This document shows positions 2,995 through 18,067 of a stretch of 64,000 nt of DNA, one piece after another. Every line of letters starts with the position of its first letter. Within the stretch, counting starts at the first letter, position 1. The notes below the pieces were generated by a model. The model was not told where the DNA came from, did no database searches, and saw only the letters and a list, made by a program, of their open reading frames with translations. This DNA is from Bdellovibrionales bacterium (lineage in GTDB: Bacteria; Bdellovibrionota; UBA1018; CAIMNF01), in the NCBI GenBank assembly GCA_040380025.1, contig JBEIJY010000001.1:96001-160000 (forward strand), read 5' to 3'. A program made the translations under genes and the position numbers.

Positions 2995-3930
2995 CTATTG
3001 ATTTACCGGGCCATATTTGCCAGATTTCAGAAGATTTCGGTAAACATCCCTTTGAGACTCGCTCATCCTGAGTCTCATGGGATCCAAGGTGGAATACTTG
3101 CTCGAACTCATCAGACGCCCCCCTTCGAAAGTATCAACTGCCTCGGTGATATTATCGGCGAAATATTCCATTGTTTGCATTTTCCAATTATTCTGATTCA
3201 GCTCTCGAAACAATAGAATCACGGATAACGGCTTCTTCTCCAGCCGATTCCTGATGAAAAGCAGATAGTCCGAAAGAATGGACTCCGTCATGACTTCACA
3301 AGATTTCGCGTTTTGATCTTTATAAATACTCGAGAACAACCCATGGTCCTCAGCGCAGTCAAAGCGACTGTGGACACCGAACAAACGCGATTGAATCCCG
3401 TCAATGAACTCCGAGGACACCTTTTCGAGAGGATCCTCGATCCAAACCCGGAAGGAGGCTGCAGGCGGTATGAAGATCGTCTCCGGATTCCGTTTTGCGA
3501 TCGAGTAGGAGCTACTCTCCGCATGCCCCGAGGATCGATCAAGGACGCTGTATCCCATCATGAAATTGAAAAAATTCGGATGATCCCGATGATTCACATA
3601 TTGAACCGTGGAGTTGAAACTACTCCTCCATGTTCTCGAGATCTCGACTCGCGGATCATTTTCCTTCACGAATACATCGAGCTTTACCCCCTCAAAAACT
3701 GCAGAAATCGAGGCCATATTGACTTCAATGACAGCAGAAGTCTTGTTCCTCATCTCGAGGATCCCACCCGAGAGAGGAACTGGCGTAAATGAAACATCCA
3801 ATCGAGAATCAGCTTCCCCGGAGCTCCTCCGGACACTGTAATCCAGATAAACATATCGATTCGGCGAAATCGCACACGCAGAAACCATAAACATCAGTAT
3901 TCCGCCCAAGATAAAATGATTTTTGATCAT
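2995..3930 (-). CDS. Hypothetical lipoprotein, AT-richer than flanks
   Basis: MIKNHFILGGILMFMVSA|C lipobox from ATG at 3930; no recognisable domain. Confidence 0.6.
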   Translation of the reverse strand: MIKNHFILGGILMFMVSACAISPNRYVYLDYSVRRSSGEADSRLDVSFTPVPLSGGILEMRNKTSAVIEVNMASISAVFEGVKLDVFVKENDPRVEISRTWRSSFNSTVQYVNHRDHPNFFNFMMGYSVLDRSSGHAESSSYSIAKRNPETIFIPPAASFRVWIEDPLEKVSSEFIDGIQSRLFGVHSRFDCAEDHGLFSSIYKDQNAKSCEVMTESILSDYLLFIRNRLEKKPLSVILLFRELNQNNWKMQTMEYFADNITEAVDTFEGGRLMSSSKYSTLDPMRLRMSESQRDVYRNLLKSGKYGPVNQ

Positions 3931-4056
3931 GAGTTGTATTTTACAAAACCAGCGGCAACCGGTCAAATAATTCCCGGCAAAGCCGGGGAGGACGACTTCT
4001 CCCGGGCCACTTCTTCGCCCGTTTCAATTTGGCTAAGTCGAGCGAAGTGAGCGAAA

Positions 4057-4284
4057 GAGGCGTATGAATAATACGCCGGACTGAGCGAATCTGATGCGAG
4101 ACGACCCCAAATTGGATTGGGTGAAGAAGTGGTTGGGGCGCTAGGATTCATCTCGGCCGTCCCGGCCTCGACCATGCGGACGGCAGTCGCTACCGCTCCC
4201 GCCGTGCAAAAATGCCTCCGCTCCTGGCGGAGCTTCCTTGGCATTAACGCCCCAACCACTTCTCTCCTGTATCTCCCGGAATCC
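4057..4284. repeat. 228-bp direct repeat, copy 1 (contains tRNA-Gln 3'-end inverted repeats)
   Basis: Matches 5751-5978 at offset 1694 with 5 substitutions counted by eye; contains the 26-bp tRNA-Gln 3' end/flank (4124-4149) and its inverted copy (4248-4263). Confidence 0.95.
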
Positions 4285-4410
4285 GGGATAGAGCTGTCCT
4301 GTGTGTTGAAATCCATTGCGATCCGGTTCGGAGAAACAATCGGTTGCTGATCCCGGCAGATCAGTTGTGAACTGCGGGAGCGGGGTGGGGGGGCGGTACT
4401 CGATTCAACC

Positions 4411-4447
4411 TATGTAAAATTAAAAGCAATGATTTCAATTTTACATA
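4411..4447. promoter_or_regulatory. Palindromic operator upstream of AAA_14/DUF4143 gene
   Basis: Perfect 11-bp inverted repeat tatgtaaaatt-N15-aattttacata ending 9 bp before the ATG at 4457. Confidence 0.6.
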
Positions 4448-4456
4448 TGTTAAAAA

Positions 4457-5656
4457 ATGGTGCATAGTGGAGAAATGGCTCACACGAGACCCCGCCATCT
4501 GAAACCCGTTTTCGAGAAATCCCTTCGTTGGTCCCCTTCGGTGTCATTGCTGGGAATGAGGCAGGTGGGCAAAACCACCCTGATGAAGGAATTGGTGGAT
4601 CATTACCAAACCTTCGATGACGACACCCTTGTGTTCAAGGCGAATTCCGGGAATTGGTCGTTCGTGGATGCTCCCAAAGGAACTCTTGGTCTGGATGAGT
4701 GCCAAAAAGCTCCCTCTGTGTTCGATCGGGTGAAATTGAACATCGACCAAAGGAAGCGCCCCGGGCAATATGTGCTGAGCGGCTCCGTTCGCTTCCTCTC
4801 CAAAAAACAGATTCGCGAATCCCTCTCCGGAAGAACCGACATTCTCGAACTGTTTCCGATGGGCATTTCGGAATGCCATTCGGGGGAACCGAGCCGGTTC
4901 CTGCCCATTGCGCTGAAGCTCGAGGGGCAAGCATTGCTCAATAAGATCGAGAGCAACGCCCGATACTCGCGGAAACAAGTTGAAGACGGCTTCATTTCGG
5001 GCGGATTGCCCGGGATCTGCTTCTTGAGGGATGCCGCAGTCCGAAATGCGAAATTCAGGATCCAAATCGAGACGCTTTTGAGTCGAGACATCGAAATGAT
5101 CGCCCCGACCGATGTCGGATATGCAAAATTGAAGGCTCTCGCCACCGGGGTTTTGAAGGAGTGCGGATCTCCTGTCAATCATTCCCGCCTCGCGAAGAAC
5201 TCGGGCCTTTCGGCCCCTACTGTACGGAGACTCCTCGGAGCACTCGAGGGTCTGTTTTTGATTCGAAGACACGGTCGCTGTTTTTTCGGGACCGATACGG
5301 GACTCACCCATTTTCTGGTCAAGGAGTGGGAACCGGACTCCAGGCCATTCCTGTTGAGCACTGTTTTCATGGAGTTGACCCGTCAGCTTTCTTACAGATA
5401 TCCCAATCTTCACGAGTTCGATGAATTCCGGAGTCGAGGAGGCATCGATGTTCCATTCTTGATACGAGTCCAAGGCCATGCTCCGCTCGCGATTGTTCCG
5501 GACATTACGGAAGGCGCCTCGAACAAGTCGCTGATTAGCCTCACGTGGTTCAAGAAAAAATTCAAAGACGCGAAGACCATCGTTCTTCACCGGGGAAATC
5601 GGGCATATCAAGCCTCGAGCGGTCATCTCTGTTTGCCATACGAGATGATCTACTAG
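4457..5656 (+). CDS. AAA_14/DUF4143-family ATPase
   Basis: GMRQVGKTT Walker A, LDECQK Walker B, LSGS, ESLSGR, GGLP, wHTH-like SAPTVRRLLGALEGLFLI; C-terminal nuclease-like motif appears degenerate. Confidence 0.85.
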   Translation: MVHSGEMAHTRPRHLKPVFEKSLRWSPSVSLLGMRQVGKTTLMKELVDHYQTFDDDTLVFKANSGNWSFVDAPKGTLGLDECQKAPSVFDRVKLNIDQRKRPGQYVLSGSVRFLSKKQIRESLSGRTDILELFPMGISECHSGEPSRFLPIALKLEGQALLNKIESNARYSRKQVEDGFISGGLPGICFLRDAAVRNAKFRIQIETLLSRDIEMIAPTDVGYAKLKALATGVLKECGSPVNHSRLAKNSGLSAPTVRRLLGALEGLFLIRRHGRCFFGTDTGLTHFLVKEWEPDSRPFLLSTVFMELTRQLSYRYPNLHEFDEFRSRGGIDVPFLIRVQGHAPLAIVPDITEGASNKSLISLTWFKKKFKDAKTIVLHRGNRAYQASSGHLCLPYEMIY

Positions 5657-5750
5657 GTCGGGACCGAGATCTAGCGAGAAAGGGTTGCCGAATTCTTCAA
5701 GACTCTGCCCATTCTTCCGGATCGTATTCGGAATGACAACGGATCCGAGG

Positions 5751-5978
5751 GAGGCGTATGAACAATACGCCGGACTGAGCGAATCTGATGCGAGACGACG
5801 CCAAATTGGATTGGGTGAAGAAGTGGTTGGGGCGCTAGGATTCATCTCGGCCGTCCCGGCCCCGACCCTGCGGGCGGCAGTCGCTACCGCTCCCGCCGTG
5901 CAAAAATGCCTCCGCTCCTGGCGGAGCTTCCTTGGCATTAACGCCCCAACCACTTCTCTCCTGTATCTCCCGGAATCC
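5751..5978. repeat. 228-bp direct repeat, copy 2
   Basis: Near-identical to 4057-4284; tRNA 3'-end copy at 5818-5843, inverted copy at 5942-5957. Confidence 0.95.
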
Positions 5979-5982
5979 AGAA

Positions 5983-6055
5983 AGACCCGAGCGCTTGAAG
6001 CCGGAGAGGTCAGGATGACCGCAGGAGTCCTCCCCTACTTCAAGCGCTCGGGTCT
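5983..6055. terminator. 18-bp perfect inverted repeat downstream of tRNA-Gln (terminator-like)
   Basis: agacccgagcgcttgaag (5983-6000) / cttcaagcgctcgggtct (6038-6055), 37-nt loop with an inner GGTCA-GGA-TGACC hairpin; only a short U tract. Confidence 0.5.
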
Positions 6056-6084
6056 GTTTGAAAAATGGAAATAAAGGAAAGAAG

Positions 6085-6159
6085 TGGTTGGGGCGCTAGG
6101 ATTCGAACCTAGGAATGGCGGAATCAAAATCCGCTAGCTTACCACTTGCCGACGCCCCA
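6085..6159 (-). tRNA. tRNA-Gln (TTG)
   Basis: TGGGGCG acceptor pairs with CGCCCCA-ACCA; anticodon arm GCGGA-TTTTGAT-TCCGC; GGTTCGAATCC T arm. Confidence 0.97.
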
Positions 6160-6189
6160 ACAGAGTTATGAAGCTTAGCGGATGAAAGA

Positions 6190-6218
6190 GGGATAACACA
6201 GGCACGGGGACAGCGCAA
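6190..6218 (-). promoter_or_regulatory. Candidate sigma70 promoter of tRNA-Gln
   Basis: Minus strand TTGCGC-N17-TATCCC. Confidence 0.4.
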
Positions 6219-6262
6219 GGCAACAGTCCGCAGGATTGCGGAATCAAAAGAAGAAAAGCGAA

Positions 6263-6580
6263 CTACTCGTGACTGGCGAGCTCCTGAAGACCGTCGTCTT
6301 CGGGCAAACCGGAATGCCCCGAACCGCGCTTGATCTCAGTAAGATACGCCTCGAGGATTTTTTTCTCCATCGTCATCCGGGTCGCTTTGTTCAGCGGATG
6401 GGCCACGTCCTTGTATGATCCGTCCGATCGTTTTTTGCTGGGCATGGCGACAAAAAGGCCGGTTGCGCCGTTGATGATCTTGAGATCGCGAACCACGAAA
6501 CATCCGTCGAGCACGATCGTCACATAGGCCTTCAGCTTTTCTTCGCTGACAGGAAAAACTTTGACTTCAGTGATTTCCAT
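6263..6580 (-). CDS. spoVG: SpoVG family protein
   Basis: MEITEVKVF...LKAYVTIVLDGCFVVRDLKII.G..GLFVAMPSKK...YKDVAHPLN signature. Confidence 0.95.
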   Translation of the reverse strand: MEITEVKVFPVSEEKLKAYVTIVLDGCFVVRDLKIINGATGLFVAMPSKKRSDGSYKDVAHPLNKATRMTMEKKILEAYLTEIKRGSGHSGLPEDDGLQELASHE

Positions 6581-8126: not shown

Positions 8127-10724
<2,598 letters not shown>

Positions 10725-16319: not shown

Positions 16320-16939
16320 GCGCCGCAATTCTCGAGAATCCGCGCCTGGAGCTTCAACACCACCTGCGACCAGGTCTTCGAGACCCCGTCGGTGCCCGTG
16401 TGAAGAACCTCGCAAGTTTTATGAAGATCTTCGAACGCGGTCGAAAGGTTGAAATCCAGCACATCGAGATTCCCGGCCGCCTCGAACTCGCCCTCGAGCG
16501 TCCGGCGGTAGTGCATCGGAATAGGGCGGCTCTTGCCGTTCATGTTCAAAAGAAGCTCGAAACTTCCTTCGCGCTTGTCGCCCTTCGCGGTCCGGATGGA
16601 CGCACTCAGGAGCCCGTCCTTGGTGAAGAACTTGAAGAAGTGCTGAAAAAGGGTCAGATCGCGCGCGGGGTTTCCGGTCTGGATGGTTTTTTCGTCCCGC
16701 ACGGTGATTTCGCCCGTGAGGCCCGAAAGAAGCGCAGGCACTCCTTTGGTGCTCTCGAGACCGCCCTTCACGCCCACCTCGGCAAAGGAACCGTTCACCG
16801 CGACCTTTTGCTTGGTTTTGAAGGCGGTCCAGTGGATTTGAACCGAGGCCGGATCGAGGGTGTGCTTGCAAGCACCCCCAGCGCGGGCTGCGATCGGGGC
16901 AAGAGTCCAAATGGCGAGGATCACGATGATTTTCTTCAT
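16316..16939 (-). CDS. YceI family periplasmic protein
   Basis: Signal peptide; I.WTAFKT..KVAVNGSF, TGNPARD, CEVLH.G.DG..KTW pattern. Confidence 0.8.
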   Translation of the reverse strand: MKKIIVILAIWTLAPIAARAGGACKHTLDPASVQIHWTAFKTKQKVAVNGSFAEVGVKGGLESTKGVPALLSGLTGEITVRDEKTIQTGNPARDLTLFQHFFKFFTKDGLLSASIRTAKGDKREGSFELLLNMNGKSRPIPMHYRRTLEGEFEAAGNLDVLDFNLSTAFEDLHKTCEVLHTGTDGVSKTWSQVVLKLQARILENCGA

Positions 16940-17018
16940 GGCGGGTTCAGTGTACGTAAGCAAAAATACCTATGCAACTTTTTTGGTCGGGACAGCCACC
17001 CGGGGTCAAAAATAGCTT

Positions 17019-17047
17019 TTGCGCCAAAACCCAAGCTTTGGTAGCGT
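17019..17047 (+). promoter_or_regulatory. Candidate sigma70 promoter of tRNA-Ser
   Basis: TTGCGC-N17-TAGCGT; same -35 hexamer as before tRNA-Gln. Confidence 0.4.
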
Positions 17048-17070
17048 ACGGACTTCGACCAAGTTTCAGC

Positions 17071-17160
17071 GGAGAGATGGGTGAGTGGTCGAAACCACAC
17101 CCTTGCTAAGGGTGCAGGGAGTAACATCCCTCGAGAGTTCGAATCTCTCTCTCTCCGCCA
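17071..17160 (+). tRNA. tRNA-Ser (GCT)
   Basis: GGAGAGA acceptor / TCTCTCC-GCCA; anticodon arm CACCC-TTGCTAA-GGGTG; long variable arm; GTTCGAATC. Confidence 0.97.
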
Positions 17161-17164
17161 TTTT

Positions 17165-17206
17165 AAAAAAAGCCGGTGAGCCCGCAAGGGTTCAACGGCT
17201 TTTTTT
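17165..17206 (+). terminator. Intrinsic terminator after tRNA-Ser
   Basis: aaaaaagccg..gagccc-gcaa-gggttc..cggcttttttt. Confidence 0.8.
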
Positions 17207-17216
17207 ATTTTGCACA

Positions 17217-17367
17217 GCGGGGAGAGAGAGATTCGAAGCGAGCAGACCGGCCTGCGGTGCAGGCTGAGCGAGCGTGATGCGAGCGAAAGGTCTGCGAGGT
17301 GGCCAGGCGGAGGAGCGGCCGGATGGCGCGACGAGCGCTTGGCCGAATCTCTCTCTCTCCGCCATTT
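17217..17367. repeat. Element bounded by inverted copies of the tRNA-Ser 3' end
   Basis: gcggggagagagagattcgaa (17217-17237, inverted) ... cgaatctctctctctccgccattt (17344-17367, direct copy of 17140-17163). Confidence 0.9.
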
Positions 17368-17405
17368 AAAAAAGGCTTCCGGGCATTTCCCCGGAGGCCT
17401 TTTTT
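17368..17405. terminator. Bidirectional intrinsic terminator
   Basis: aaaaaaggcttccggg-catttc-cccggaggcctttttt. Confidence 0.8.
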
Positions 17406-17425
17406 AGTTCGTATCGCGGGAACCA

Positions 17426-18067
17426 TCACTTTGACTTCTTGTCGCATTCGAGACTTAGAATCGAATGCATTTTTTGAGGCATTTTCCACACAATTCGATC
17501 CAGCGGGATAGATGCGGCGGCCCATTGCTTCCTGTCTGCCAGCGGACCAACGAGTTCGGATTTCAGGAACTTCTTGAAGTCCTCGGAGCTTTCCTCGTAC
17601 CTCGCACCTTCGCAGGATTCCATCCGATTCCAACGCCTCTCAAATCCCAGAAGAACCTCGCGGCATTGCTCGTGCCTCAGCGAAACACGGGCTTGCTTCT
17701 CGCTATCATGGAAATCGGCAAAAAATCTCCGGATGCGAGCCTCGCATCGGACGATGGCGCCCCGATCCCACGCCGCTGACAGTACCCCGATCACAGCCGA
17801 GAGCTTGGTATCCAAGGTCACGGAATCGGGGGTTTTTCGGCTTTCGAGCAACACTCGCTGGCGGAGAGCCTCCGGAAGGTCCTGGACACCGTAATACTGG
17901 CATTCGACCGGGATAACCAACGGGCCCCTTTTTGTGGCGGCCCCGGAGAGCTGATCGAGCTCTTGGGTCACGGCATTCAGGCACGAAGAAGGCACCGCAA
18001 GAGCCGATTGCGAGGCAAATCCGGTCACTACCCCGAACAGAACCAAGAAAAGGAATCCCCTGCCCAT
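17426..18067 (-). CDS. Hypothetical exported Cys-containing protein
   Basis: MGRGFLFLVLFGVVTGFASQSALA|V signal; six Cys. Confidence 0.6.
   Translation of the reverse strand: MGRGFLFLVLFGVVTGFASQSALAVPSSCLNAVTQELDQLSGAATKRGPLVIPVECQYYGVQDLPEALRQRVLLESRKTPDSVTLDTKLSAVIGVLSAAWDRGAIVRCEARIRRFFADFHDSEKQARVSLRHEQCREVLLGFERRWNRMESCEGARYEESSEDFKKFLKSELVGPLADRKQWAAASIPLDRIVWKMPQKMHSILSLECDKKSK

Follow-up and report, generated by a model that had tools for sequence, protein, structure and literature searches.

In the 64-kb stretch of DNA analyzed here (hereafter the window; positions 96,001 to 160,000 of contig JBEIJY010000001.1, assembly GCA_040380025.1, from a Bdellovibrionales bacterium), a tRNA-Gln gene is followed by two 228-bp direct repeats that enclose a single ATPase gene. 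We tentatively propose, with confidence just short of even, that this tRNA gene carries an array of non-autonomous integrative cassettes, for which the recombinase would be encoded elsewhere. The site-specific cassette explanation was adopted because the units recur, the types of their structured spacer (termed S) are common to several tRNAs and differ at one and the same tRNA, some sites are empty, and one inverted arm, in genome G002, carries a foreign tRNA variant.

Organization of the tRNA-Gln Locus

Repeats, tRNA genes and open reading frames (ORFs) were searched over the 64-kb window, which belongs to a 2.35-Mb assembly of 53 contigs. The repeat search returned two direct copies, 4052-4284 and 5746-5978, which are 233 nt long, 97% identical and 1694 bp apart from start to start, and which are confined to the tRNA-Gln locus within the whole assembly. 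Pairwise alignment of the 228-nt core (4057-4284 vs. 5751-5978) confirms the five differences reported in the initial annotation of this DNA, located at 4069, 4106, 4168, 4174 and 4180, and the 5 additional nt at the low end of the repeat hold two further mismatches. A 26-nt word is present in three exact copies, one in each repeat (4124-4149 and 5818-5843) and one at 6079-6104, just as had been noticed before. The third copy comprises the last 20 nt of an intact tRNA-Gln(ttg) gene, located at 6085-6159 on the minus strand (ARAGORN; Rfam, 59.6 bits), plus 6 nt of flank. Beyond tRNAs, no Rfam model exceeded the threshold in 3800-6400 or 16800-17700. The absence of a recombinase, also remarked on initially, holds for the 9 ORFs tested between 844 and 10724, none of which matched a recombinase family in Pfam. 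The SpoVG/FAD-oxidase/ClpB side of the locus is syntenic with the congeners, and the opposite side is not.

Read in the direction of the tRNA, that is, along the minus strand, the locus has the order tRNA, core O_a (6079-6104), 261-bp non-coding unit, core O_b, 1694-bp ATPase unit, core O_c and resident trailer. Behind the tRNA end come 18 nt of trailer (F1) and then a strong hairpin, M1 (5978-6060), with 32-nt arms at 5978-6009 and 6029-6060, followed by an inverted copy at 5939-5970, which consists of trailer (F1') and 11 nt of the tRNA end. Together they make a long palindrome (5939-6098, minus strand), which starts inside the tRNA 3' end and forms the body of the 261-bp unit. Its outer arms, 6067-6098 and 5939-5970, are likewise 32 nt long and set the tRNA end with F1 against the inverted F1' with O', the inverted tRNA end. 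The palindrome search gave identities of 88% and 84% for the two arm pairs, and the 160-nt palindrome folds as single-stranded DNA with -54.3 kcal/mol (z -10.85).

Each repeat, in the same direction, is composed of a short inverted tRNA-Gln 3' end (O'), the ~100-nt structured spacer S, the 26-bp direct core O and ~70 nt of the trailer start. In the tRNA-proximal copy 2 (5746-5978, minus strand), O' is located at 5942-5957, S at ~5844-5941, O_b at 5818-5843, and trailer F2 with half of its hairpin M2 at 5746-5817. Next comes the cargo (4285-5745, plus strand), namely a promoter/operator region and the ATPase gene, antisense to the tRNA. In the distal copy 1 (4052-4284, minus strand), O' is located at 4248-4263, S at ~4150-4247 and O_c at 4124-4149. 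Here the trailer runs on intact, and the complete trailer palindrome F2-M2-F2' (4007-4132, minus strand; arms at 4107-4132 and 4007-4032) lies behind O_c. Folded on the tRNA strand, the repeat reaches -108 kcal/mol (z -5.45), with an O'/O stem of ~20 bp.

The F2-M2 sequence is homologous (query 3-98) to that directly behind tRNA-Gln in the congeners G010 (78%) and G009 (71%), and also to the stretch behind tRNA-Leu(tag) of this genome, and it was therefore read as the resident trailer of the tRNA. The 228-bp repeats are two O'-S-O junctions, each joining a cassette end, the 26-bp core and ~70 nt of trailer, and do not constitute a single unit. The initial annotation had envisaged a cassette array growing from the tRNA end by one repeat plus one cargo gene at a time. 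The array itself gains support from the recurrence described below and from cargo-bearing units at three other tRNA/tmRNA loci, whereas its supposed building block does not stand, the repeat not being one unit and a separate 261-bp non-coding cassette lying between the tRNA and copy 2.

Under the proposed explanation, tRNA-Gln would end in core O_a. Unit 1 (261 bp) would contain only a terminator-like palindrome, a short O' and S, and would be followed by core O_b; unit 2 (1694 bp) would contain ~70 nt of the tRNA trailer start, the AAA_14 ATPase gene and an O'-S end; and core O_c with the intact trailer would be the displaced original end of the tRNA gene. Such an order would most likely arise if the tRNA gene and circular cassettes recombined site-specifically, one after another, inside the 26-bp core. 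A circle S-O-body-O' integrating at the tRNA end would yield tRNA-O-[body]-O'-S-O-trailer, with the newest unit next to the tRNA. This layout is the familiar attL/attR one plus an inverted core ~100 nt away from the direct core. The two inverted target-like sites are able to pair here over ~17-19 bp, and through this O'/O pairing S-O may serve as a folded site, like the attP of CTX-phi or, more loosely, the attC of integrons. Candidates for a recombinase acting in trans would be two ~405-aa tyrosine integrases, two Xer-like recombinases and one Y1-transposase-like ORF, all of them described below. RecA-dependent exchange between the 228-bp repeats could also give a 1694-bp circle.

Recurrence of the Units

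Then, do similar units occur behind other tRNA genes? In this genome (G000), copies of the tRNA's own 3' end are present just downstream of 5 of the 40 predicted tRNAs, which are Gln, Ser(gct), Leu(tag), Glu and Arg(acg). For example, the tRNA-Ser(gct) unit (17071-17364, plus strand) is composed of the tRNA (17071-17160), a terminator, an inverted 3' end (17217-17237), an S module of a second type (type B), a direct copy (17344-17364) and a second terminator, and contains no cargo. Behind tRNA-Arg(acg) there are repeats ~2.6 kb apart, of 64 nt (89%) and 44 nt (95%), each made of an F' end and S. Between them lie genes for a BrnT toxin and an ORF6N protein as well as an unknown ORF, and a further ORF6N gene comes next. 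At tRNA-Leu(tag) (G000:C5:22750-23223), one full unit is followed by a second that ends 16 nt into S, the two forming a 144-nt repeat (91%, 288 nt apart); the inverted arm retains the T-arm, and its acceptor sequence differs from that of the resident tRNA. The type A module of the window is found in this genome at the tRNA-Gln locus only.

Across this genome and its relatives, 13 tRNA or tmRNA loci were examined, which were picked because they matched the repeat or came up in the scan of the present genome and do not represent a random sample. In 12 of the 13, the local tRNA end is repeated directly 184-373 nt downstream, over 10-21 nt (17-21 nt in 11 loci); the remaining locus, in G010, has neither a direct nor an inverted copy. 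An inverted copy of at least 14 nt is located between the tRNA end and the second copy in seven loci. The copy derives in every case from the tRNA of its own locus. The relatives show the architecture next to genes for tRNAs Gln, Ser, Arg and fMet and for tmRNA, where it encloses genes of the toxin-antitoxin, Fic and ORF6N kinds.

The S modules behind different tRNAs belong to a few types. Type A is found behind Gln (window and G003), tmRNA (G013), Ser(tga) (G002) and fMet (locus L077), with arms that match each of these genes, and type B behind Ser(gct) and Arg(acg) here and behind Gln in G002. Close to the tRNA-end copy, separated from it by a few bases, every S variant closes with a small hairpin, either GGCCnGGAnGGCC or one related to it; GGCCnGGAnGGCC is conserved and is followed by GA..TGAA directly before that copy, and the hairpin stands 8 nt from the junction. 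In type A, pairing is kept by double changes in 15 of the 20 predicted pairs among eight sequences, which speaks for structural constraint on S but, with sequences so few and partly related, falls short of proof. The inverted arm in G002 bears the tRNA variant of another species and not its own, a hint that this arm may have come from elsewhere.

Units with cargo were read at other loci in detail as well. Behind tRNA-Arg(tct) of G018, four direct tRNA-end copies delimit two non-coding units and then a ~3-kb cargo unit ending in a partial F' and S, after which toxin-antitoxin genes follow. Behind the tmRNA gene of G013, one non-coding unit is followed by 5.3 kb of cargo that carries HxlR, hydrolase, cyclase and Fic genes and closes with S and a 12-nt copy of the tmRNA end; SDR and HxlR genes lie beyond it. 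In three arrays, the cargo takes the place of the palindrome tip (F-M), and the distal F'-(O')-S is retained. The same tmRNA island of G013 contains a 224-nt repeat (L024, 8774-8997 and 15114-15337; 92%), which corresponds to two genes for HxlR-type regulators, located in separate but neighboring cargo segments.

The tRNA-Gln site was also compared within the genus, for which 17 genomes are at hand; 13 of them matched a tRNA-SpoVG probe and 11 were readable behind tRNA-Gln. Five of the 11 have an S-O unit there (G000, G002, G003, G008 and G009), and both the S variants of these units (type A, short, type B, other) and the downstream genes differ. One (G010) has the trailer palindrome alone, and five (G001, G006, G007, G011 and G016) have neither. 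In G001, G007, G011 and G016 a T-rich trailer leads straight into a conserved gene for a Cys-rich secreted protein; G006 has other sequence, with no second copy within the 750 nt read. These four empty genomes have a tRNA variant in common and probably form a single clade, so that the comparison covers few independent events. Variable content between the repeats of relatives had been anticipated from the window alone, and no ordinary island of fixed content was met at tRNA-Gln in the congeners. This presence and absence, together with the variable content, argues against a fixed, vertically inherited scar.

A scan with the 23-nt S hairpin motif gave 81 matches in 80 genome-contig loci. Five are linked to tRNAs, all in metagenome-assembled genomes (MAGs) titled Bdellovibrionales or Oligoflexia. 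Another 41, all in Planctomycetota MAGs, belong to a ~130-nt palindromic repeat that has no tRNA within 1.5 kb upstream. The other 35 were discounted, being in unrelated sequence that looked coding where it was read. The Planctomycetota repeat is abundant (Kuenenia, Pirellulales), occurs at no fewer than 9 loci in one MAG, often at contig ends (L052-L131, e.g., L102 ~3870-4060), and has two inner hairpins with nGGAn loops as well as a constant outer stem of its own.

Cargo and Neighboring Genes

The sole supported gene between the repeats is located at 4457-5656 on the plus strand, with a likelier start codon at 4478 behind GGAG, as read by eye, and a palindrome with 25-nt arms lies upstream of it at 4404-4454, in keeping with the early description of one gene plus its operator. 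Its label as an AAA_14/DUF4143 ATPase stands in the first half: AAA_14 matches with 71.3 bits (1e-19; Pfam cut-off 27), and DUF4143 remains below its cut-off (19.3 vs. 28.1 bits). The C-terminal winged-helix stretch, the same region that matches DUF4143, scores HTH_IclR at 23.2 bits, a borderline value against the cut-off of 22. Over residues 5-271 the protein matches the PDC-S01 models of PADLOC (2e-55, 186 bits), a candidate single-gene defence family, and the ATPase is accordingly a candidate phage-defence gene. A minus-strand ORF (4544-5953) overlapping the ATPase gene has no support.

The best relative of the ATPase in 60 related genomes is 37% identical, and the family there is patchy and multi-copy. 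A close relative in another context was not found: metagenome contigs gave one match of 36%, and the 60 genomes gave none above 37%. The GC content of the cargo is 0.53, compared with ~0.6 nearby. From the distant best relative, the patchy multi-copy family and the lower GC content, the cargo appears foreign. The poly-G run upstream of the ATPase gene (4380-4390) is one G longer in a contig of sequencing run X1 than in the window.

Beyond copy 1 lies an AT-richer ORF (2995-3966, minus strand; GC 0.47 vs. ~0.6), which has a lipobox-like N-terminus and no family match, in keeping with its initial description as a lipoprotein gene. No homologue was found behind tRNA-Gln of the relatives, and the ORF is probably further accessory DNA beyond the array. 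Elsewhere in the window, a 66-nt inverted repeat (79% complementary) has its arms at 115-180, in a 5'-open ORF at the window start, and at 8650-8715, in a ClpB-type gene (8127-10724). It probably reflects an ATPase motif conserved between two Clp-type genes that lie on opposite strands.

Recombinases of the Genome and Its Relatives

Which recombinase, then, could serve the units? This genome encodes two Xer-sized tyrosine recombinases, two ~405-aa tyrosine integrases on other contigs and one weak Y1-transposase-like ORF; no serine recombinase and no TnpB were found in it. The tyrosine recombinases are located on contigs C2, C27, C31 and C35, and one of the ~405-aa integrases lies beside an excisionase-like HTH protein at a contig start. 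No tRNA or S was found near the integrases on C31 and C35. Tyrosine recombinases are present in all 17 genomes of the genus, none seen beside an S unit, and the loci read contain no autonomous integrase-bearing element next to S.

The Y1-like ORF (G000:C13:34748-35038; L200:1336-1938) encodes 200 aa, scores 27.5 bits for Y1_Tnp and 23.8 bits for the IS200 model (cut-off 55), and is followed by a hairpin with a 30-bp stem. Its flanks contain no S-like repeat. A Y1_Tnp match is present in all six congeners that have a unit or palindrome at tRNA-Gln and in none of the five without, these genomes being kin.

Large serine recombinases of the relatives were considered as mobilizers of the units and rejected: no second tRNA-end copy lies within 17-20 kb in any of six such elements, none is encoded in this genome, and they represent a different class. 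In 15 of 20 loci (L217-L236), they abut a tRNA gene in convergent orientation; the reading frame runs into the tRNA 3' end, and a ..CAAGC..TCGAAC motif, an inverted T-loop, recurs ~18 nt after CCA. By these sequence features they would be a family of integrases that target tRNA ends and leave no long duplication. Viral contigs were likewise dismissed as carriers of S, the two pattern matches being chance matches in coding sequence, and no phage or viral contig had the S motif.

Many ORFs of ~150-220 aa across many related genomes resemble the Recombinase domain PF07508 in its first half alone, and two of them lie beside S in the tRNA-Arg array of G018. They may constitute a small DNA-binding protein family rather than gene fragments.

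Alternative Explanations

Reads were assessed through public Logan contigs (k=31) of four runs, X1-X4, of which X2-X4 contributed only low-depth pieces. In run X1, one contig leads from the left flank into the repeat, to 4099; a 215-nt repeat node (4070-4284) has depth 44; a 1540-nt contig over the cargo (4255-5793) has depth 24.3; and two contigs, 5949-6118 (22.1) and 6092 onward (29.4), cover the tRNA side, the depth of the flanks being 22-29 overall. The contig hole over repeat copy 2 (5856-5949) is uninformative. Both cargo junctions and the two-copy state of the repeat are confirmed, and the cargo is present at about one copy per genome. Contigs of k=31 do not decide the topology, as their graph fits an integrated unit and a one-repeat chromosome plus 1694-bp circle alike. 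The five phased differences between the copies in the assembly argue for integration.

Several observations weigh against the cassette explanation. No recombinase could be linked to the units, and none of the loci read holds an autonomous element that shares their S end. The 1694-bp circle or empty site suggested for checking in the initial annotation did not appear, neither joint being present in the contigs of the four runs, although k=31 contigs cannot exclude a free circle. The congener G011 has an S unit elsewhere, and yet two Xer-like tyrosine recombinases are all that it contains among the recombinase families searched, with no Y1_Tnp match; at least some units may therefore be inert relics. 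In 6 of the 13 loci the inverted arm is short or missing, and CCA is lacking from the second copy in G003, so that not every locus has a folded O'-S-O site. The 2.2% divergence between the two repeats shows that the event is not a recent one. In addition, the start of unit 2 matches the resident trailer at 97%, and its end matches that of unit 1, again at 97%. Both of its ends being copies of local sequence, the unit looks locally built and not imported, and homologous recombination, template switching or replication errors could do the same.

The explanation that survives best beside the cassettes, though we consider it unlikely, is that of inert scars. Tandem islands integrated at the tRNA would have lost their integrases by internal deletion, S would be an old attP arm, and nothing would move. 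Islands of this kind are classically recognized by a directly repeated tRNA 3' end, and arrays of degenerate elements with partial tRNAs are known for tycheposons, according to the part of that account available to us (10.1101/2020.12.28.424599). The 2.2% divergence of the repeats and the absence of excision joints in the contigs fit inert remains, as do two short fragments matching the Recombinase domain PF07508 in the tRNA-Arg array of G018 (22.4 and 20.7 bits; L023:7012-7311 and 5146-5481). However, the tRNA-Gln array contains no integrase remnant, and random deletion would not yield the complete 190-370-bp architecture at many tRNAs and genomes. Scars also sit poorly with the different S variants at the same tRNA in congeners and with the covariation in the S structure.

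Local rearrangement is a rather improbable source of the array. Palindromes would have provoked template switching or unequal recombination that duplicated the 228 bp, with the ATPase gene brought in by homologous or illegitimate recombination. The tRNA ends follow each other in direct, inverted and direct orientation and turn at hairpins, an order resembling tandem inversion duplications, which have reportedly been worked out in the Roth laboratory. Both ends of unit 2 are 97% copies of resident sequence, as mentioned above, and the 144-nt repeat at tRNA-Leu(tag), 288 nt apart, looks like a simple tandem duplication. What such rearrangement leaves unexplained is the constant place of a conserved S module immediately 5' of the direct copy across tRNAs and genera, and also the differing S types at one tRNA in congeners.

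Transposition of single-stranded hairpin DNA by a Y1 transposase, as in IS200/IS605 elements or REP sequences (repetitive extragenic palindromes) with their REP-associated tyrosine transposases (RAYT), appears very improbable. S would be the right end, with its hairpin subterminal, and the T-loop GAA|T the target, to which the conserved closing hairpin of S, 8 nt from the junction and followed by GA..TGAA, lends some color. The single Y1_Tnp-like ORF (27.5 bits) with its six-of-six vs. none-of-five split among congeners points the same way, and so does the 23-nt hairpin motif that S has in common with the multi-copy palindromic repeat of Planctomycetota. However, a single event or two may lie behind this split, as the congeners are kin. 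An S unit occurs in G011 without a Y1_Tnp match, the flanks of the Y1 gene in this genome are free of S-like repeats, and no TnpB was found. A target of 4-5 nt would neither confine copies to tRNA ends nor explain identical copies of 17-26 nt.

Finally, an assembly artefact, in which the chromosome would have one repeat and the ATPase segment with the other repeat would belong to a separate circle or another strain, is hardly credible, for even though the flank-repeat-cargo-repeat-flank graph at k=31 (repeat node 44 vs. cargo 24.3) fits both topologies and the assembly is in 53 contigs, the cargo depth of 24.3 equals that of the flanks (22-29), the five differences are phased in the assembly and the first of them is confirmed by contigs (T at 4069 in the flank contig, C at 5763 in the cargo contig), and analogous arrangements of cargo between modules exist in other assemblies.

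Comparison with Known Systems

CTX-phi and other integrative mobile elements exploiting Xer recombination (IMEX) at dif have no recombinase of their own, and two inverted copies of the target, ~100 nt apart, fold as single-stranded DNA. The integrated form of CTX-phi shows inverted copy, spacer and direct copy at one end, and its arrays grow at the regenerated target. The units described here differ in that the target is a tRNA 3' end and not dif, and in that 6 of the 13 loci have a weak inverted arm or none. In integrons, single genes lie between similar structured, imperfectly palindromic attC sites, the likeness being closest to chromosomal arrays whose attC repeats are near-identical; the cassettes are often promoterless or encode defence or toxin-antitoxin functions, and the array is anchored at one site. 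A single-gene unit between similar structured repeats in an array anchored at one site is common to both. However, no intI, attI or Pc is present here, tRNA-Gln is the head of the array, and the ATPase gene has an upstream palindrome of its own and is antisense to the tRNA. Identity of the repeats with attC was tried by eye and rejected, as the arms GTTGGGG ... CCCCAAC on both strands are in the wrong order and fit poorly to R'' RYYYAAC ... R' GTTRRRY.

Like REP sequences, bacterial interspersed mosaic elements (BIMEs), REP doublets forming hairpins (REPINs) and hairpin MITEs (miniature transposable elements with inverted repeats), S is small, structured, palindrome-rich and non-coding. Unlike them, the S copies found in this lineage are tied to tRNA ends, with the local tRNA 3' end as outer arms. 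As for IS200/IS605 or REP-RAYT systems, type A S is present at one locus here and not dispersed, and tRNA-end copies of 17-26 nt flank the units.

The units resemble islands with their own integrase in the direct repeats of the tRNA 3' end, here three exact 26-nt copies, and differ from them in having no integrase inside the element. Cis-mobilizable elements (CIMEs), as far as the consulted parts of the sources describe them, are bounded by att sites, lack recombination genes, stand in tandem at one site with integrative and conjugative elements (ICEs) or integrative and mobilizable elements (IMEs), and are presumed to be mobilized by the integrase of a relative (PMC5704250; PMC7563491). The units here are likewise att-flanked and lack recombination genes. 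However, CIMEs as portrayed in those parts are kilobases long and have known partner ICEs with which they share att sites, whereas the smallest units here are 190-370 bp long and non-coding, and no partner turned up in the loci read or in viral contigs. The units are further set apart from CIMEs by their inverted core copy and their structured, conserved spacer. Tycheposons, islands of Prochlorococcus, are located beside tRNAs, where successive integrations push older elements outward with partial tRNAs between them, and carry adaptive or defensive cargo, in the part of the description available to us (10.1101/2020.12.28.424599). There they are said to carry their own integrase, degenerate ones being described as fragments, in contrast to the integrase-free units here. 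That part of the account makes no mention of an S-like module or an inverted tRNA end, both of which are features of the present units (10.1101/2020.12.28.424599). Units at tRNA ends in which a conserved spacer is flanked by one inverted and one direct copy were not described in anything returned by a full-text literature search, which covered sources other than subscription journals.

Implications

A more far-reaching possibility, which we regard as doubtful, is that tRNA genes of this lineage are integron-like docking platforms, at which minimal cassettes, either empty or with single defence or toxin genes, would be inserted, stacked and exchanged via the folded S module, set between the inverted and the direct tRNA end, by a host-encoded or otherwise unlinked recombinase that is not known to act on tRNA ends, and that the S motif would mark a cross-phylum family of hairpin-dependent elements including the Planctomycetota repeat. 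Even if the units are inert, they would still represent an uncatalogued family of structured repeats, which breaks assemblies at tRNA genes and marks hotspots of defence genes. If active, they would be a minimal means of capturing and swapping individual accessory genes at tRNA ends, with no integrase on the element and with a compact integration module of ~130 nt of S plus the 26-bp core. Such a system would be placed between classical islands, integrons and Xer-exploiting elements, and it would explain part of the variable DNA beside tRNAs in uncultured bacteria with small genomes.

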